Below, one piece after another: positions 7,161-53,400 of a stretch of DNA of 53,808 nucleotides (within the stretch, counting starts at the first letter, position 1; every line of letters starts with the position of its first letter). The position numbers and the translations under genes are program-made. The notes beneath the pieces are model-generated. The model made no database searches and was not told the DNA's origin. It saw only the letters and a list, made by a program, of their open reading frames with translations. The stretch is from a virus: UHGV virus genome UHGV-0110229; one strand, written 5' to 3'.

Positions 7161-7262
7161 TTATAGATTGACCAGAAGGAACAAACCGCCGAACAAAGCG
7201 ACGTTAACGGCGATTGCAGCAGCGATGGCAAAAGCCAGGGCAAAAACGTGTTTACCGTCCAT
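7161..7262 (-). CDS. Possible small hydrophobic peptide (33 aa, single TM)
   Basis: MDGKHVFALAFAIAAAIAVNVALFGGLFLLVNL with GAGAGG RBS; sits in the gap between the replication initiator and Rha genes. Confidence 0.25.
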   Translation of the reverse strand: MDGKHVFALAFAIAAAIAVNVALFGGLFLLVNL

Positions 7263-7395: not shown

Positions 7396-8454
7396 TCAAA
7401 GAGCGCCACATCGTGTATCACGTAGCGTTTTTGGTTTAAGCAGGAAATCAAGTGTCGCAGTGAAGCCATCGCCGAAGTAAAAATCTGAAGCATTGTTTTT
7501 GAACGTTTCAAAGTAGGCGACAAAGCCGTTAATGCTTTTGTCTTTCAGGTAGTCAGTGAACGCATAAATCTTGCGTTCAAGATCCCGATCCAGTTCGGCA
7601 GGTGGCAACATGCCATCAAACGTGCTGTTAAATGCCTCCACTACGTCGGCAGCGTTTGCAGTGGCTGACAGTTTGCGCCATTTTTCAGCATCAGCCAGAT
7701 ACCCATCAAATTTAGTCACCCGGCAAATGTTTATAGGCTTAGGTGTTCCACCACGGCTACGCCATTGCGTTAAAGCCCACTCAATCACTAATGTGATCTC
7801 ATCCTCCGTATACGCTTTACGTGTTTTTGTTTCTGTCAGTAGTTCTACGAATGGCTTAGCATCACGACACTTGCATCCTGCCTTGTCGTTGTAGAAGGCC
7901 AGACAACGCAACGCCGCTTCGTTTACGCCATCCTGACTGACCGTTTTTTGTTCATTTTCGACAATACACGAAGTGTATATATCTTTTTCTCTTTCTTCTT
8001 CTTCTTCTAATTCTAATTCATGACCCTTTCCTGACCCTGTCATGACCCTATCATGACCTTTTTGTGTTTGATTGATTAGCTTTTCTAATTTTAATTGCTC
8101 CTTAGCTGTGTTTATTGCTGCCCTGTATGCGCTTTTAGAAGTCATTGATTGGTCAAGCCTTTTCAATAACTTTAAACAAGTTATGTGGCCCTGAGAACAT
8201 TCGAATAAACCAATTTCGATAAAGTATTTCATCATTTCTTCTATGCGCTTTTCAGTAGATCCTACGTTTCGCGCAATGATTCTTGCATCGTGTCGAAGGT
8301 CAAAATTAAGGTTGTGCTGATCTACGTCGTAAGTTATCAGTTCGAGGCAATACCAATAAAGACCGTAACCTTCCAGGCCATAATCTAATAAAACGTTTTG
8401 AAGTTTTTCATCGCGGTTCGCATCGCTATCATGCTTAAACCACTTCATAATCAT
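7396..8454 (-). CDS. Putative replication initiation protein (phage O/DnaD-like)
   Basis: 352 aa; N-terminus MKWFKHDSD..YGLEGYGLYWY resembles phage replisome-organiser N-terminal domains; acidic linker; sits upstream of the helicase. Confidence 0.5.
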   Translation of the reverse strand: MIMKWFKHDSDANRDEKLQNVLLDYGLEGYGLYWYCLELITYDVDQHNLNFDLRHDARIIARNVGSTEKRIEEMMKYFIEIGLFECSQGHITCLKLLKRLDQSMTSKSAYRAAINTAKEQLKLEKLINQTQKGHDRVMTGSGKGHELELEEEEEREKDIYTSCIVENEQKTVSQDGVNEAALRCLAFYNDKAGCKCRDAKPFVELLTETKTRKAYTEDEITLVIEWALTQWRSRGGTPKPINICRVTKFDGYLADAEKWRKLSATANAADVVEAFNSTFDGMLPPAELDRDLERKIYAFTDYLKDKSINGFVAYFETFKNNASDFYFGDGFTATLDFLLKPKTLRDTRCGAL

Positions 8455-8705
8455 TCCTCCGGCAACATAACTACATAGACACCACTAAACGCATCAATAC
8501 GGCAAACAAACCCTTTGCTAATTAATGCGGCGAAGGCATCATGTACCGTATGAACAGGAAGTTCACACATTTTTGCTACTTCTTCGCGTGATACGCTTGT
8601 CCGCCCCTGGCTATCCGCCGTCTCAGCAAGGGCGATCAAAACTAGTTTTTGAATCGGGCTGTTAAGTTTTACGTTCCATGCTTTGCTAATTATGTTCATG
8701 CTCAT
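8451..8705 (-). CDS. HTH DNA-binding protein, first gene of leftward early operon (Cro/cII-position)
   Basis: 84 aa from ATG at 8705..8703 with AGGAG RBS; HTH-like segment REEVAKMCELPVHTVHDAFAAL; divergent from cI. Confidence 0.45.
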   Translation of the reverse strand: MSMNIISKAWNVKLNSPIQKLVLIALAETADSQGRTSVSREEVAKMCELPVHTVHDAFAALISKGFVCRIDAFSGVYVVMLPEE

Positions 8706-8814
8706 CGTGTTTTCTCCTATGGTTAGAGTGAACGCGCTGGCGGGCATCCAATTAGCATTAGATAGCAGTGACTGACCGCTCAACAGATCCCGCCGTTGCG
8801 TGATATTTGTTTTT

Positions 8815-8846
8815 CGCTTCGCAGCGACACCGGATTTTTAAAGAGC
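8815..8846 (-). promoter_or_regulatory. nut-like site (boxA + boxB-type hairpin) for the leftward operon
   Basis: On the minus strand: AGCTCTTTAAAAATCCGG followed by hairpin CGCT-GCGA-AGCG; shares the 17-mer GCTCTTTAAAAATCCGG with the site at 17292. Confidence 0.5.
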
Positions 8847-8887
8847 TTTTAAGGTATGTTCCTTTTGTGCTTTCCATTATCTTTTTT

Positions 8888-8903
8888 CTTGCATCCTTGC
8901 AAG
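8888..8903. promoter_or_regulatory. Candidate operator palindrome in the cI/cro-side intergenic region
   Basis: CTTGCA-TCCT-TGCAAG perfect 6-bp inverted repeat; further TGCAAG/CTTGCA half-sites at 8921 and 8976. Confidence 0.35.
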
Positions 8904-9011
8904 TATGGACTTACCTTGTCTGCAAGTTTACAGAATGGCGTTAACAGGTCAAGGATTGAAAAATACATTTTGTGACTTGCATCAAACTTTTTTAGCTTAT
9001 AGGGTAGCGAC

Positions 9012-9659
9012 ATGAAAACAAAATGGTATGACTTGGCAAAACAACTCATGCGGGCGCAGGGCATGAGTCAGGATTCACTGGCTGATCTCATGGGGATAAC
9101 AAAAGGCGGCTTGTCGCACTGGCTGAACGGTCGCCGTGAGCCAAATCTTGAAGATATTGCGCGGATCATGCGGGCGCTTGGGCGTCGGCAATTCACTGTC
9201 ACACATGATGGGATGGTCATCGATGATTCTGTTTCTAACACGTTACCGGGAGCGCCACCGCGTGATTTAGGCAGTTACCCGGTTGTTGACTGGAAGGACG
9301 CAGTAAACAATATGGAAGATGCAAGGCGATCAACATTACCACACGTTACAACTAGCGTTATTTGTTCTGATGATAGTTATTGGCTGGTAGCTAAAGGCGA
9401 ATCAATGAACGCTCCGCAAGGATTGAGTATACCAGCGGGGACGATGATACTTGTCGATCCGCACGCGCCAGCTATTGACGGCAAACTAGTTATAGCCCAA
9501 CTGGAGGAAGGGCAAACTCCTACGTTTAAACAGCTTGTTATTGATGGAGGTCAAAGGCTTTTACGTTCACTCAATCCGCTGTATCCACCGATCCCTATGA
9601 ATCCAGAATCTAAAATCATAGGTGTGGTAGTGGATGCGAAGATCGTAAACCTGCCATAA
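9012..9659 (+). CDS. cI: CI-type prophage repressor (HTH + S24 LexA-like autopeptidase)
   Basis: 215 aa; N-terminal HTH (QDSLADLMGITKGGLSHWLNG); C-terminal S24 motifs (AKGESM Ser, later Lys). Confidence 0.85.
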   Translation: MKTKWYDLAKQLMRAQGMSQDSLADLMGITKGGLSHWLNGRREPNLEDIARIMRALGRRQFTVTHDGMVIDDSVSNTLPGAPPRDLGSYPVVDWKDAVNNMEDARRSTLPHVTTSVICSDDSYWLVAKGESMNAPQGLSIPAGTMILVDPHAPAIDGKLVIAQLEEGQTPTFKQLVIDGGQRLLRSLNPLYPPIPMNPESKIIGVVVDAKIVNLP

Positions 9660-9664
9660 ACACT

Positions 9665-9689
9665 AGCCGCCGAATGGCGGCTTTTCTTT
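9665..9689 (+). terminator. Rho-independent terminator after cI
   Basis: AGCCGCC-GAAT-GGCGGCT stem-loop followed by TTTTCTTTG. Confidence 0.6.
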
Positions 9690-9781
9690 GCTAAAAAACA
9701 CCAAAACGTAAACAGAAAACCATGTTTATCATTTAAATATCAAGTGCTTATAAAATTTTATAAAAAAGTATACAAAATGTG

Positions 9782-9819
9782 TTGACTCGTGTTTTTACGG
9801 GGCGTATATTTCGAGTCAA
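9782..9819 (+). promoter_or_regulatory. Sigma70 promoter (PL-like) embedded in an operator palindrome
   Basis: TTGACT-17 nt-TATATT; flanked by perfect inverted repeat TTGACTCG (9782-9789) / CGAGTCAA (9812-9819); AT-rich upstream. Confidence 0.6.
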
Positions 9820-9852
9820 AAGGAGGAAGCAAGGCAGGGAAAGAAGGTTACT

Positions 9853-9890
9853 TGCTCTTTAATAATCTGGTCAGCCGCTGGAAGTGCGGC
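9853..9890 (+). promoter_or_regulatory. nutL-like site (boxA + boxB hairpin)
   Basis: TGCTCTTTAATAA matches boxA (rrn-type TGCTCTTTAACAA); then hairpin GCCGC-TGGAAGT-GCGGC; lies between promoter and the N-like gene. Confidence 0.6.
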
Positions 9891-9946
9891 AATTAACGAA
9901 GATGATTTTTTATTAAGTATCATCAAGGATATAAGGAGATCAGATC

Positions 9947-10237
9947 ATGACAGTTACAATCATGTATGGCAAATGTGACAGTAAACTGAATGCCAGGGAA
10001 CGCAGAAGAATAAAAAGAGAAAACGAAAGAAAATCATCACCTGCAATTAATAAAACAGACAATGTGGATAAAGCTATTCGCTTTGCAAACGAGGAAAGAT
10101 GCAAACCAAATAGCATTAAAGAACGTCGCAAAGGAGCAGTAAAATGGTATACGGAAAATGAAAGCGGCAACTACTACCACGCAACGCAACCACGCCATTT
10201 AGGGGAAAAACCACTTGATAAAGTCCGTTACCATTAA
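9947..10237 (+). CDS. N-type transcription antiterminator (P22 gp24-like, N-terminal arginine-rich motif)
   Basis: 96 aa; N-terminus MTVTIMYGKCDSKLNARERRRIKRE resembles P22 N as recalled (MTVITYGKS..NAKTRRHERRRK); AGGAG RBS; first gene after promoter and nut. Confidence 0.7.
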   Translation: MTVTIMYGKCDSKLNARERRRIKRENERKSSPAINKTDNVDKAIRFANEERCKPNSIKERRKGAVKWYTENESGNYYHATQPRHLGEKPLDKVRYH

Positions 10238-10267
10238 TACAAAATGTAAACAGCCGGAGGTGACGTT

Positions 10268-10390
10268 ATGGTTATTCAGGCGCTCCAATTCAAACTGGCG
10301 GTAGCGGAAATGCTTCATGATGCCGAAATGTGGAGCGCCGCGAATAAAGCCTTATATATAGTGTTAACAGCGAAGGAGATTAAAGAGTGA
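10268..10390 (+). CDS. Small ORF upstream of erf (positional analogue of P22 arf)
   Basis: 40 aa, GGAGG RBS, stop overlaps the erf GTG start (GTGA). Confidence 0.3.
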   Translation: MVIQALQFKLAVAEMLHDAEMWSAANKALYIVLTAKEIKE

Positions 10391-13614: not shown

Positions 13615-13713
13615 CGTTGTGGTTGCGATCGCATAAATATACGTTTTGTGTTGCGATCGCAAATCCGTTTTGTGAACTGAAATCAAAAGGTTTACGGCGC
13701 GGAGGAAAACAAG

Positions 13714-17193: not shown

Positions 17194-17290
17194 AATTTAC
17201 AAAATGGCGTCATTGCGTGATGTGGATCACATAATGGCGCTTTTTACCTTGTTCTGACGTATCCATTTTGTATACTTCAAACAAGCAAAA

Positions 17291-17325
17291 TGCTCTTTAA
17301 AAATCCGGCAGCGCTGAAATGCGTA
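17291..17325 (+). promoter_or_regulatory. Internal nut-like site (boxA + weak hairpin) upstream of the ninF/ninG-like genes
   Basis: TGCTCTTTAAAAATCCGG then CGC-TGAAAT-GCG; the 17-mer GCTCTTTAAAAATCCGG is identical to the leftward nut-like site. Confidence 0.4.
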
Positions 17326-17352
17326 GAAATCACCTGAAAAGGAGAGAGCATT

Positions 17353-37594: not shown

Positions 37595-37751
37595 TTTCTT
37601 ATCCTCTTTTGCTTCCTCCGGTTAATCCGGCCTTTTAAGTCCCTTCGCTCTATCCCTTTTCTTTATCTTCTTTATACAAAATGTACTCGTTGAAGTGAAG
37701 CCATTTTGTATAAAATAGAGACGTGGATCACATTTCGTATGAGGTTAAATC

Positions 37752-40891: not shown

Positions 40892-40920
40892 TATATACAT
40901 CTTGTCACGTCATGTGTGAA
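40892..40920 (-). promoter_or_regulatory. Sigma70-like promoter for moron B (reverse strand)
   Basis: On the minus strand TTCACA-17 nt-TATATA; a plus-strand TATAAT at 40939-40944 may drive gpM. Confidence 0.4.
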
Positions 40921-41019
40921 GCCGTTTTGTAAACTGGGTATAATTCTTGTGACAAAGTTCTCATTTTTCGCGTAGAAGCGCGTAAAGATGTATGCAATAT
41001 GTAACTTATAGGGGGAATC

Positions 41020-42373: not shown

Positions 42374-42559
42374 TCATTTGACAGGTTCGATCCTGTACCC
42401 CAAAACGCGTTCGTCTTCAGCGAGTAAGAGCGCGTCGGTAAGTGCCTCGCCTTCATCTTTATACAGGGCCACAGTCATTTTCCTGCCATCCGCAAGGAAC
42501 ACCGTCAACCTCCACACCTTGTCATCCATTTCACACCTCCGCGCCATTTTGTTAACCAT
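42374..42559 (-). CDS. Moron C gene 1, 61 aa hypothetical protein
   Basis: Start at MVNKMARR (ATG 42559..42557) downstream of promoter with AAGGAAG RBS; track ORF extends to 42616. Confidence 0.4.
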   Translation of the reverse strand: MVNKMARRCEMDDKVWRLTVFLADGRKMTVALYKDEGEALTDALLLAEDERVLGYRIEPVK

Positions 42560-42575
42560 GCTTCCTTTTGAGTAC

Positions 42576-42604
42576 AATATACATATTGTAAAAAACGCGA
42601 TCAA
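42576..42604 (-). promoter_or_regulatory. Sigma70-like promoter for moron C (reverse strand)
   Basis: Minus strand TTGATC-17 nt-TATATT; adjacent direct repeat TGATTTAG x2 at about 42616-42633. Confidence 0.45.
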
Positions 42605-42657
42605 CCGTTTTGGCATGATTTAGCGTGATTTAGATCACAAAATGACAAGGTGATAAA

Positions 42658-50031: not shown

Positions 50032-50056
50032 CCCCGCTTCGCGCGGGGTTTTCTTT
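50032..50056. terminator. Bidirectional rho-independent terminator after J and the lipoprotein gene
   Basis: CCCCGC-TTCGC-GCGGGG with A-run upstream and TTTTCTTTT downstream. Confidence 0.65.
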
Positions 50057-50304
50057 TAGTAGTTAGCTACACAGTTAGAAGGGCTACCGATGCGGCGCAT
50101 GTTGTGATCGAGTTCGTGACACCATTGACCAGTATATGGCAGTTTTTCAGTGTCATAGACTAGATGCCCGCCACCATCATAAACAACATCTTGCGGAATT
50201 ACTCCACTATTCGGCAGGTTATGCAATGCAGCCTCTTTGTCAACAGAGCAACCAGTAAGAGCAACAGCCGCAGCGAACAAAACCACTTTGAACACGTTTT
50301 TCAT
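50056..50304 (-). CDS. Small lipoprotein moron (candidate Cor/Llp-type superinfection exclusion protein)
   Basis: 82 aa; signal peptide with lipobox LTGC; opposite strand between J and stf. Confidence 0.5.
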   Translation of the reverse strand: MKNVFKVVLFAAAVALTGCSVDKEAALHNLPNSGVIPQDVVYDGGGHLVYDTEKLPYTGQWCHELDHNMRRIGSPSNCVANY

Positions 50305-50481
50305 TTTTGAACCCTCATTCTTGTTTGTTAATCCGGTTCACCCGGTGACTTAAATATCCGGCAAAACCACATTTCGTATATTGACACAGATCAACAAATA
50401 CATTTTGTGTAAGCAGAAAATGCAACACAGATCACAAAATGGTAGAATTATTCCGTTAATTAACAAAATGGAGTCATCGAG

Positions 50482-53400
50482 ATGATTTACACAACTGGAA
50501 CAATTGCCATCAGCGGCAATACTGTTACAGGCACGGGCACAAACTTTTCCGCGCCGCTTTCTCTTATTCGTGTAGGTTGCACGCTCATTGCTGTTGGCAA
50601 CCCTGTACAGATCTTTACCATCACGGAAATCAAAAGTGGTACTGAACTGTCAGTGACGCCAGCGGCTAACCCCGCCATCCCTGCCGGGACAAAATTTAGC
50701 ATCCTGCTATCTGACTCGATCTCAGTTGATGGGCTTGCTCAGGACGTGGCTGAAACCCTGCGTTACTACCAGAGCAAAGAAACAGAAATCGCCTCCGCTG
50801 TAGAGTGGTGGGAAGATTTCGGCGGCGAAGGTCAGTTGGATCAGCTTCTTACCAACATTCGCGCAGAAACAGCACAATCAACCGCCAACGCTCAAAAAAC
50901 AGAAACTGACAAAAACGCAGCAGAAGCGTCAAAAACAGCGGCTGCAAAATCTGCCACAGCAGCGAAAACATCAGAAACTAACGCTAAGGCAAGCGAGACG
51001 GCAGCGAAAACAAGCGAAACCAACGCCAAAACATCAGAGAACAGGGCGCAAGAATATCTGAATCAGATAATAAGGTCTAACAACGCATTGGTACAATGCA
51101 ATTGGCCTGTTACAACTGAAGCCTTTGCCCGTTATGTGAAGATCGCTAAACTAACCGATCCGGGTGCAGTAAGCTGCCATTTAACACTAATGATCGCCAA
51201 TGGCGGTAACTACGGTACAAGTTACGGGAATATTGACTTTGTAGAGATCTCCGCTCGCGGTCTTAGCGATGTGGAAAGCATAACCAGTGAAAATATAACT
51301 AAATTTTTAAGTGTTCGCCGCCTCGGATCGCCTAACCTTGCTAATGACAACCAAATGCGTTACGGCCTGGTTAAAGGTGACGGCTATATCGAGGTCTGGT
51401 GCTACCAGCGAGCTTTTATTAAAGAAACAAAGGTTGCGATACTGGCACAGACTGGCAGAACTGAATTATACATTCCTGAAGGGTATGTCGTTCAGGAAGC
51501 CGAACCCGCTGGATATGTTGAAAGCCCAGCAGCAAGGATTTACGATCAGGTAAACAAACCAAGCAAGGCAGACTTAGGCCTTTCTAATGCTATGCTTATA
51601 GGCGCTTTTGGTCTTGGCGGCAGCGGTCCGTCATCAAACGGCATGATGAGCAATACAGAGCTATTAAAAGCACTGCGTGCAAAAGGTAGTCATTTCTGGC
51701 GTGCTGATAAGCCTGACGGAAGCACAGCGACACATTACGCCCACGGTTCTGGTATATTCTCTCGGTGCGGTGATACATGGTCGGCGATCAACATAGAATA
51801 CGAAAATGCCAGAGTTAAGATTTTCGCTGGCAATGATAACAAACTTGAAACTGCAACTTATGCCGTAAATGAGCTATACGGAACCAAAAATAAGCCGTCG
51901 AAATCTGACGTTGGACTTGGCAACGTAACTAATGATGCGCAGGTGAAAAAATCCGGCGATATTATGTCTGGCGACCTGGCGGTCTATAAAGATACTCCGT
52001 CACTATTCCTTAGGGCAAAAGATGGAGCAGGTGCTGCCGCTGTGCGGTTTTTCACTGATCAAAACCTGGAGCGCGGCATAATCTATGCTATTCAAAACAC
52101 TGATACGCTTGGAGAAGTTCGCATTAGGGCTAAAAACGCAAAAGGTGAAACAAACGGTGATCTTGTTGTTCGCCACAACGGGGTGGTTGAGGTTCAGAAT
52201 CTCACAGCGGCTAAAAAAGTAAAAAGCGTAAACGCAGAGCTTGCAAACACATCAACTAACACGCTTGAGAACACGTTAAAAATCAGCGGTCAACAGCATA
52301 CTCCATTACTTTTAACGCGTACCGGTTATACTGAAAACCTATCCATTGGCTTTAAGGTTGACAACCTTGATCAAAAATATCTCGGAATCAATGGCAGTGG
52401 AGATCTAGCTTTTGGTAAAAATGCTGATCATAAACAAAACAGCAGAGTGATTACGCAAGCAATACTGGATAGCGGGGTGACGGTAGGCGGCAAAACAACA
52501 TTTTCTGACCTTGCCACATTTAACGCAGGTATGGCTGGAGCAATTGAGCCTGAAAGCATTTCTGAAGTGGCTGTTGATCTTAATAATCTGACCATAAAAG
52601 GCACAGATAAAGGTTCAGTTAAATACTATCACTGCAGAACTGCCGGAGGCGGTGCAAATATTACCAATAAGCCTGCTGGCATAGGTGGTAACTTTTTGCT
52701 TCGTGTAGAGTCAATTCGTAAGATCACGGATTCAGATTATACAAACTTGCAAACCCTTGTTGGCACAGACACAAAACAAATATACGTTCGCTATTGTGAA
52801 AATGGCAATTGGTCTGCATGGAGTCAGATTGTTGTTTCAGGAAGAAATCAGGATGTAACCGTCAGGTCGTTAACCTCGACGACTCCATCAAAATTAGGTG
52901 GCGGGCGTATTGATGTGCTTGGGAGTACGTCAGATTATAACAGCATGAATTGTACCGTGCGCGGTGTTGATAGCAGCGGAACTAATTCTGCGTGGTCAGT
53001 AGGCACATCAGTAGACACTGGCAAAATGTTGTTCCTGAAAAACCACAGAAGCAGCGCTCAAGTGCTGTTAAATGGCGATGACGGCGCGGTTCAACTACTA
53101 AGCGGTACTGTCAACGGTGCTACAGCACAGGCGCTAACCATCAACAAAGATGAGGTTAACTCAACTGCTGATTTAGTAATTAGAAAACAAACAGGGACTG
53201 GCAATCGTTTTGTTTTACAGAACGCAGGTAATGCAGAACTACCGTTTTCTGTCAGTGTGTGGGGTTCCAGTACTCGACAAAACGTTTTTGAGGTTGCCAC
53301 GTCTGCTGCGTATCTGTTTTATGCGCAAAAAACGTCAGCAGGCCAGTTGTTTGATGTAAATGGCGCTATTAATTGCACAACGCTGAATCAGTCATCAGAC

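Follow-up and report, generated by a model that had tools for sequence, protein, structure and literature searches.

The immunity region of the viral genome UHGV-0110229, a window of 53,808 nucleotides (the whole stretch of DNA that was analysed), is organized around a cI-type repressor gene that lies between two divergent early operons. It appears, with a probability put at about 65%, to form a switch of the phage lambda type, in which a single CI repressor would act through one type of operator, the 13-bp pseudo-palindrome (A/T)(T/C)AC-N5-GT(A/G)(A/T), on both sides of its own gene; since the operator type is the same on the two sides, the switch would be lambda-like in its logic. The window is that of a coliphage of the mEpimmI group, a relative of mEp021: over 8400-10300 its DNA shares 88-94% identity with six mEp phages and as much as 97% with prophages, the segment being present in 35 of 5426 complete E. 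coli genomes, and protein identity, including that of the group-specific repressor, places it in the same group. In human faecal E. coli, mEpimmI phages reportedly match lambdoid phages in frequency, and the repressor, N-like protein and nut sites of the group have already been studied: the cloned repressor Rep021 confers immunity, and three nut sites have been described (PMC11893012). Operators of the group are not mapped in the accessible literature; PMC11893012 gives neither operator nor promoter positions, and a full-text literature search with the operator core sequences returned unrelated papers only. The present analysis yields coordinates for four putative operators and two or three promoters, and removes the protein in the Cro position from the switch.

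The repressor aligns with lambda repressor (3bdn) over residues 15-208 with E = 2.7e-19, which identifies it as a homologue of lambda CI, and the protein encoded at 9012-9659 is 93-100% identical to the repressors of 43 relatives in IMG/VR. Comparisons among relatives covered 44 sequences for the rightward side of cI, 45 for the leftward side, and 28 distinct sequences for the core of the leftward palindrome discussed below. The CI N-terminal domain is essentially invariant in 44 relatives, with the same recognition helix in all but one, and the N-terminal 67 residues are 100% identical to those of mEp554 and mEp515; since the domain is so nearly invariant, its operators are expected to be conserved too. 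Further afield, it is 52-57% identical to the corresponding domains of phage L c2 and of CI from Klebsiella phage ST340-VIM1phi10.1, and it also resembles those of repressors on three IMG/VR contigs. The recognition helices are nearly identical (TKGGLSHWLNGRREP in the window, TQGAIGHWLNGRREP and TQGGLGHWLNARREP in the homologues). A homologue search with the 80-aa N-terminal domain yielded five truncated copies of the same protein only, and a scan of species-representative genomes with CI confirmed no relative.

The operator motif was taken from these homologues. In phage L, the Klebsiella phage and the IMG/VR contigs, the DNA separating cI from the divergent gene holds three 13-mers of the form (A/T)YAC-N5-GTRW, with centres at -16 to -18, -43/-44 and -76 to -78 from the cI ATG, and two more YAC-N5-GTR sites lie on the early promoter at the other side of cI. 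A weight matrix built solely from those foreign sites was used to scan the 13-mers of the window, in which seven matches of at least 12 bits were found (1.6 expected) and five of at least 14 bits (0.37 expected). The two sides of cI share a 12-mer in inverted orientation, 8962-8973 being the reverse complement of 9772-9783. An earlier, sequence-only reading of this DNA had proposed that the two sides carry different types of operator; that proposal does not agree with the presence of the externally derived motif on both sides, at the positions that it occupies in the homologues.

On the leftward side, the OR2-like site (Table 1) has counterparts at -43/-44 in phage L, the Klebsiella phage and the sequence designated L045, and relatives depart from it at two places only, the first central base and half-site position 2 (T/C). 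In 26 of the 45 relatives the OR1-like site has the form TTACAAAATGGAA, which scores 9.7 bits and is identical at 12 of 13 positions to the Klebsiella phage site ATACAAAATGGAA; the last three bases of the OR1-like site overlap the leftward -10, in a G/TA(T/A) arrangement, a geometry shared with phage L, L045 and the rightward promoter of the window itself. On the rightward side, ATACAAAATG of the OL-a site is invariant in 44 relatives and is matched by the Klebsiella phage arrangement (CTCCATTTTGTAT/TGATC). The last three bases of OL-b are the first three of the -10 (G/TAT overlap), and relatives retain (T/A)(T/C)AC-N5-GTAT there while the centre changes, one of them having the perfect ATACGGGGAGTAT; both the 25-bp spacing of the rightward sites and the overlap with the -10 are the same as in the Klebsiella phage. 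Differences among relatives in the proposed CI sites fall on the degenerate second position or on the central bases, and AC...GT is kept. Judged by sequence, then, the lambda-type trait of one operator type at both early promoters is seen at 8963-8975, 9770-9782 and, in its half-sites, 9795-9807.

The promoters to which these sites would be linked are of unequal standing. The rightward early promoter, which serves the N-like gene, the recombination genes and Q, keeps its -35 in 43 of 44 relatives and its -10 in all 44; its predicted start is near 9817. The predicted leftward promoter lies upstream of a nut site and has, in the 45 relatives, an invariant -10 and either TTGACC or TTGATC as its -35; transcription from it would start near 8918. 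An alternative leftward promoter, TTGCAA (8902-8897) with GATAAT (8881-8876), was rejected, its spacer being 15 bp and the last T of its -10 varying among relatives. The putative cI maintenance promoter rests on spacing, on conservation (8999-9010, around its -10, is invariant in relatives) and on analogy with lambda PRM and its OR2 at -42; the cI mRNA would probably be leaderless or nearly so, starting near 9012. In the proposed scheme, CI bound at the OR1-like site would block the leftward promoter by overlapping its -10, and with it the nut site and replication genes that this promoter drives; CI at the OR2-like site would activate the cI promoter, as lambda CI activates PRM from OR2; and two CI dimers, at 9770-9782 and 9795-9807, would cover the rightward promoter. 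What carries the scheme is sequence, conservation, and motif and positional homology, from which the binding, the transcription starts and the activation of the cI promoter are all inferred.

Several points weigh against this assignment. The OR1-like site of the window is weak (4.3 bits, top 0.2-1%), OL-b scores only 5.5 bits with the full matrix owing to its G+C-rich centre, and the putative cI promoter falls below the threshold of the consensus scan. The motif is short with an A+T-rich centre, and the plain pattern WYAC-N5-GTRW is only mildly enriched in the window (16 copies, 10.4 expected). The comparison-phage operators are sites read from sequence in the course of this work, the records having no such annotated features, and binding or transcription-start data for the mEpimmI group were not found in the accessible literature. 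Finally, a second set of sites on the leftward side, of sequence ACTTGCA, is conserved as well as the proposed CI sites and could in principle be the true CI target. Of the three leftward positions occupied in the homologues, the window has sites at -43 and -78 only; the -17 position (8989-9001), where a third site would lie over the cI maintenance promoter, scores -23 bits.

Table 1. Features of the immunity region and its flanks; operators, promoters and transcript positions are predictions
Feature	Position	Strand	Details
84-aa winged-helix protein in the Cro position	8451-8702	-	N-terminal DNA-binding domain of O-like replication initiator
Leftward nut site	8814-8846	-	boxA GCTCTTTAAAAA (8846-8835); boxB hairpin TCGCTGCGAAGCGA (8827-8814)
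H1, TCTTGCA	8887-8893	+	one base off the ACTTGCA set
Palindrome CTTGCATCCTTGCAAG, heptamer copies H1 and H2	8888-8903	.	about +15 to +30 of predicted leftward transcript; ~40 nt upstream of boxA
H2, ACTTGCA	8898-8904	-	exact copy
H3, ACTTGCA	8921-8927	-	abuts OR1-like site; overlaps leftward -10/start
Predicted leftward early promoter	8925-8952	-	-35 TTGACC (8952-8947), 16-bp spacer, -10 TAAACT (8930-8925); consensus scan
OR1-like proposed CI operator TTACAGAATGGCG	8928-8940	.	centre -78 from cI ATG; homologues at -76/-78
OR2-like proposed CI operator ATACATTTTGTGA	8963-8975	.	centre -43 from cI ATG; 12.0 bits; top 0.015% of window 13-mers
H4, ACTTGCA	8975-8981	+	abuts OR2-like site; overlaps putative cI -35
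Putative cI maintenance promoter	8977-9005	+	-35 TTGCAT (8977-8982), 17-bp spacer, -10 TAGGGT (9000-9005)
cI-type repressor gene	9012-9659	+	215 aa; HTH_3 and Peptidase_S24 (Pfam)
Intrinsic terminator after cI	9665-9682	+	annotated TERM_1 in mEp021
OL-a proposed CI operator ATACAAAATGTGT	9770-9782	.	14.0 bits, top 0.011%; last base is first of -35
Rightward early promoter	9782-9810	+	TTGACT-17-TATATT; sigma-70-like, strong; 10/12 consensus matches
OL-b proposed CI operator TTACGGGGCGTAT	9795-9807	.	half-site-only matrix 11.3 bits, top 0.004%; 25 bp from OL-a
Right arm of inverted repeat, CGAGTCAA	9812-9819	+	about -5 to +3 of rightward promoter; probably fortuitous
Rightward nut site	9854-9890	+	boxA GCTCTTTAATAA (9854-9865); boxB hairpin GCCGCTGGAAGTGCGGC (9874-9890)
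N-like antiterminator, Gp17 homologue	9947-10237	+	arginine-rich motif; weak N_peptide Pfam match; homologous to mEp021_17
Additional CI-type site ATACAAAATGTAA	10237-10249	.	15.2 bits; starts at N-like gene stop codon; ~440 bp downstream of rightward promoter

The sequence-only reading had drawn its contrast from two inverted repeats, both of which are present. The one on the rightward side, a perfect repeat with 8-bp arms 22 bp apart around the promoter at 9782-9810 (TTGACTCG at 9782-9789, CGAGTCAA at 9812-9819), does not behave as an operator. The window holds 45 inverted repeats with 8-bp arms and spacers of 10-40 bp, so that this one, taken alone, is at chance level. Its left arm is the -35 hexamer followed by CG, and its right arm lies at the transcription start. 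The repeat is perfect in 28 of 44 relatives and has one to three mismatches in the other 16, none of them compensated: right-arm variants CGAATCAA, CGAGCAAA and CGAGGCAA have no matching change in the left arm, and further mismatched variants are TTGACTGG, TTGACTCT and TTGACTCA. Since the left arm is the -35, the right arm is at the start and changes are never compensated, the repeat is a by-product of the promoter sequence, probably fortuitous as a repeat. Upstream of the same promoter, at 9749-9762, there is a perfect 14-bp A+T palindrome TATAAAATTTTATA, which in relatives is shifted (TAAAAATTTTTA); a role as UP-element or bending site is possible.

The leftward repeat, a CTTGCA/TGCAAG pair around TCCT (CTTGCATCCTTGCAAG, 8888-8903), is likewise real, as are the extra CTTGCA/TGCAAG copies noted at 8921-8926 and 8976-8981, and it is these copies together that merit attention. 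The window contains 147 perfect inverted repeats with 6-bp arms and spacers of 0-8 bp, or about 0.83 per 305 bp, and the palindrome alone is therefore at chance level; its core TTGC-N6-GCAA is nonetheless kept in all 28 distinct relatives, with 8893, 8896 and 8903 varying, and it is the sole zero-mismatch match to CTTGC-N6-GCAAG in the window. Exact ACTTGCA occurs ten times in the window, as against 9.7 expected, with no genome-wide enrichment, and three of the ten fall within 84 bp, a clustering far above chance. H3 reads TGCAAGT in 37 of 45 relatives and H4 reads ACTTGCA in 40 of 45, positions 8980-8981 varying in the other five; around H4, 8968-8979 and 8982-8986 are invariant in the 45, while the neighbouring 8933-8948 varies freely where the heptamers do not. 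The set is found on the leftward side only and is absent from the rightward promoter. Scored with the CI-type matrix, the heptamers reach -16.6 bits, far below background, and the set probably binds something other than CI. H4 also fills the spacer of TGTGACTTGCATCAAA (8971-8986), a CRP-like site that agrees with the core at 9 of 10 positions. The published motif of CytR consists of TGCAA/TTGCA elements at variable spacing with flanking CRP sites (PMC3454398); TTGCA pentamers and one CRP-like site are present here, but a second CRP site and the spacings described for CytR are not evident.

Some other assignments for these repeats were tried and rejected. CII-type direct repeats, TTGC-N6-TTGC, do not fit, the spacing here being N4 and no CII homologue having been found. 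The TTGCGATCGCA palindromes at 13.6 kb, considered as kin of the 8888-8903 palindrome, are not conserved in mEp021, and a GCAAG half-site in the rightward leader is GCAGG in most relatives. Nor are the heptamers likely replication iterons: they stay constant while the DNA-binding domain of the initiator is swapped, and iteron-like repeats are found inside the replication gene.

The 84-aa protein in the Cro position had been put forward as a helix-turn-helix regulator of the switch, a role that its relationships do not bear out. It matches PHROG 4617 (E = 2.4e-20), 391 and 8540, in each case aligned to the N-termini of replication-initiation families, the matches to 4617 and 391 covering positions 2-89 of initiator profiles of 223-298 residues; in Pfam there are sub-threshold matches to HTH_36 and TrmB only. 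Among relatives it is 36-96% identical, with differing recognition helices, whereas the CI DNA-binding domain is essentially invariant, and in these same relatives the intergenic DNA is about 90% identical with the proposed operator half-sites retained. The co-inheritance with cI and operators that is characteristic of a Cro is not seen: the window allele is 36% identical to that of mEp021; in L010 and L011 the 84-aa unit takes the place of Lin1244_N and is joined in one protein to the conserved C-terminal domain of the replication gene product, and in L039 it is absent. As judged from these sequences, the 84-aa protein is not Cro. No similarity to Cro or CII was found anywhere in the window, and the operon divergent from cI begins with this initiator-domain gene and not with a cro gene.

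Four explanations compete for the repeats beside cI. The sequence-only reading took the two palindromes as operators of two regulators, CI and either the 84-aa protein or the Rha/KilA-C system. Both palindromes do exist, at or beside promoters, and the core of the leftward one is conserved; but the right arm of the rightward repeat drifts uncompensated opposite a left arm that is the -35, homologue-defined CI-type sites lie on both sides, the 84-aa initiator domain is highly variable, and is fused or missing in relatives whose palindromes and CI are unchanged, and no evidence ties Rha/KilA-C to DNA binding here, all of which makes this reading very improbable. Its broader suggestion, that more than one DNA-binding regulator acts in the region, fares better: the argument from contrasting operator types falls away, but a second conserved type of site does exist on the leftward side, and a second DNA-binding factor is a reasonable and possible idea when rested on the ACTTGCA set instead. 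It is highly unlikely that 8888-8903 is an RNA hairpin of the leftward 5' leader, acting in stability or processing, rather than a DNA operator. Such a hairpin would lie early in the predicted transcript and has a 6-bp stem in the centroid fold, but the leader folds no better than shuffled sequences (z = -1.37), substitutions at 8893 and 8903 disrupt pairing on the transcribed strand with no compensating change in any relative, and the isolated heptamers at 8921-8927 and 8975-8981 are left unexplained, the latter not being transcribed leftward. Rfam, at gathering and permissive thresholds, gave no match in the window or the switch region.

A more substantial alternative is that the heptamers, including those of 8888-8903, are operators of a second regulator, either a phage-encoded Cro substitute or a host pair of the CytR/CRP type; it is held tentatively here, as a possibility to be taken seriously, and is compatible with the lambda-type reading of CI. 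A factor on H4, over the -35, would shut the cI promoter, and H3 with the palindrome would damp or roadblock the leftward promoter. This would accord with three exact heptamers in 84 bp where 53.8 kb holds ten, with their near-invariance in 45 relatives and a palindrome whose centre varies as for a dimer site, with the placement of H3 and H4, which touch the OR1-like and the OR2-like site, respectively, on its outer edge and reach into promoter elements, with the lack of any cro or cII homologue, with the position of H4 as the spacer of a CRP-like site, and with the TGCAA/TTGCA elements of the published CytR motif. On the other side, no candidate binder was found, the palindrome by itself does not exceed chance, the spacing and orientation of the heptamers are unlike the described CytR arrangements, and leader and cI are invariably found together, 35 of 5426 E. 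coli genomes having both, cI being the sole conserved gene of the module. It is unlikely, finally, that the repeats have no function of their own and are simply -35-like TTGCA(T/A) hexamers plus chance, conserved in a young and little-diverged module. The module is about 90% identical overall, with long invariant stretches that are there for promoter reasons, TTGCAT at 8977-8982 doubles as the putative -35, and over the whole genome the heptamer shows no enrichment; a chance origin of three exact 7-mers in 84 bp is nevertheless very unlikely, and the adjoining 8933-8948 has been free to vary.

The lambda-type reading, to return to it, can be set beside known switches. As in lambda, a CI homologue is encoded between early operons that run in opposite directions and have a nut site each, together with an N-like antiterminator; one operator type appears to serve both sides, a terminator follows cI, and the cI mRNA is probably leaderless. 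Lambda OR2 is centred at -42 from the cI start and the window site at about -43. Unlike lambda, the window has two detectable sites per side with no equivalent of OR3 at -17, and has no cro, its leftward promoter running directly into the nut site and replication genes; its operator sequence is unrelated, and the ACTTGCA set is extra. Q and the recombination genes share one operon and the replication genes are in the other, again unlike lambda. Closer parallels are Salmonella phage L (X94331) and Klebsiella phage ST340-VIM1phi10.1 (MK422455), which have YAC-N5-GTR 13-mers at -43/-44 and -76/-78 as in the window and, at the other early promoter, a pair of sites, the first up against the -35 and the second running into the -10, also as in the window. 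Both of these phages have in addition a third site at -16 to -18 and a conventional cro-type gene next to OR, neither of which is in the window, and both lack the ACTTGCA heptamers.

The window repressor also differs from lambda CI in the matter of induction. An Ala-Gly self-cleavage site is absent, residues ~93-100 reading DWKDAVNN (Ala-Val) where the homologues have SWVSAGDW, so that the lambda-type trait of Ala-Gly cleavage and SOS inducibility is not found in this repressor. In mEp021, Rep021 likewise lacks A111-G112, and lysogens are not inducible by ultraviolet light (PMC11893012). If the heptamers bind a second factor, the flipping of a switch that has no cro, no third operator and no Ala-Gly site would be explained; otherwise the region is an ordinary lambda-type design whose oddities are the missing cro gene and the missing third operator. 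Should ACTTGCA bind a second protein, there would be a likeness to coliphage 186 with CI and Apl and to P2 with C and Cox, in which the sites of the lytic-side regulator differ from those of the repressor and interleave with them. Unlike those phages, the window has no Apl/Cox-like gene beside the switch, its repressor is of the lambda type and not of the 186 or P2 type, and there is no heptamer cluster near the integrase end of the window. A bolder version, which we regard as doubtful, is that of a Cro-less CI switch in which the heptamers would be operators of a counter-regulator (from the phage, or of the host CytR/CRP type) and CI would also control, or loop to, the intergenic places where its motif recurs in conserved form, at position 10237 and at about 13.64 kb, 37.7 kb, 42.6 kb and 50.4 kb. 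Were it true, a counter-regulator would take the role of Cro where SOS does not lead to cleavage of the repressor, and the repressor would control or loop to many more sites than does lambda CI.

The wider gene order is that of mEp021 and the mEpimmI phages (PMC11893012), whose nutL, nutR1, nutR2 and Gp17 are all found in the window, giving the group's characteristic combination of a Gp17 N-like antiterminator, nut sites on either side of the repressor gene and a third one downstream. Rightward, cI is followed by the terminator, the promoter, a nut site and the N-like Gp17 homologue, then by Erf and SSB and, further on, Q; going leftward, the 305-bp intergenic region is followed by the 84-aa winged-helix gene, a Lin1244-type replication gene, the Rha/KilA-C gene and DnaB. 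Recombination genes and Q are in this way grouped on the rightward side, and replication genes on the leftward side. The leftward nut site, corresponding to the 'nutL upstream of gp15' of mEp021, has an inverted-repeat partner of its boxA at 9854-9871, forms a hairpin in the centroid fold and is almost invariant in relatives; the rightward one corresponds to 'nutR1 upstream of gp17', and the function of Gp17 is as cited in the same work (PMC11893012). A third nut site lies at 17198-17330, where a boxA GCTCTTTAAAAATCCGG (near 17294) identical to the leftward boxA is followed by a boxB-like hairpin. It is preceded by a long hairpin carrying a U-run and by a CI-type site, ATCCATTTTGTAT/ACT, that runs into TATACT, a hexamer resembling a -10; the -35 is poor, and the consensus scan found no promoter there. 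A repressor-controlled promoter feeding this third nut site would explain why there are three.

A hairpin GAUGAU-N12-AUCAUC can form at 9901-9924, beyond the rightward nut site and ahead of the ribosome-binding site of the N-like gene, and the leader 9817-9946 as a whole folds much better than shuffled sequences (z = -3.4). The hairpin resembles the processed hairpin of the lambda N leader. Most relatives, mEp021 among them, carry some 200 bp with gp16 between the rightward promoter and the N-like gene, which the window lacks; the segment, encoding the 37-aa gp16 and containing a second boxA-like sequence (for example L001 4122-4360), is missing at ~9838-9854 in the window and in eight relatives.

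The replication genes show evidence of initiator domain shuffling over 7396-8702, where the 84-aa unit falls to 36% identity and the downstream protein stays at about 95%. Within the minus-strand coding sequence of the replication gene, 8020-8058 holds four iteron-like (A/C)TGACC(C/T) repeats with a 10-11 bp period, which are likely the origin repeats for the swappable DNA-binding domain of the initiator; in L010 and L011, which have a different N-domain, a different tandem repeat occupies the same linker. Between the replication gene and the Rha/KilA-C gene, 7161-7262 on the minus strand is an open reading frame for a hydrophobic 33-aa product, MDGKHVFALAFAIAAAIAVNVALFGGLFLLVNL. That gap has no LexA box, and LexA boxes above chance were found neither near the Rha/KilA-C gene nor elsewhere in the window.

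CI-type sites also occur well away from cI. The site at 10237-10249 is invariant in almost all relatives while both of its flanks vary, two relatives changing central bases only (ATACATAACGTAA and ATACATATCGTAA), and it may be an auxiliary operator. At this site and at 50398-50410 half-sites are retained and central bases replaced in relatives, the classic signature of an operator. The latter is the middle one of three CI-type sites at 50367-50445 (CCACATTTCGTAT, ATACATTTTGTGT and TCACAAAATGGTA, 29 and 35 bp apart), and in IMG/VR relatives with diverged upstream DNA it keeps ATAC...GT(A/G) with a changed centre. The cluster lies between an 82-aa gene at 50056-50304 on the minus strand, interpreted as the Lpp-type exclusion lipoprotein described in PMC11893012, and a large plus-strand gene starting at 50482, and could serve in repressor-controlled or repressor-activated expression of these flanking genes. 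Another three sites, ATACAAAATGTAC, AGCCATTTTGTAT and TCACATTTCGTAT, are spaced 25 and 29 bp apart at 37674-37740, and further clusters of two or three CI-type 13-mers occupy non-coding gaps at 13639-13675, 40895-40932 and 42541-42647. The 8-mer CRTTTTGT is present 26 times in the window (7.7 expected); some copies lie in terminator-like hairpins (~22.3 kb and 17.2 kb), and not all of them are therefore operators. Eight CRP-like sites (TGTGA-N6-TCACA, one mismatch allowed) are present in the window, 8971-8986 among them, as against 1.7 expected; those at 17216, 40948, 42520 and 42624 adjoin CI-type clusters, and some are the arms of GTGAT...ATCAC hairpins containing GATC.

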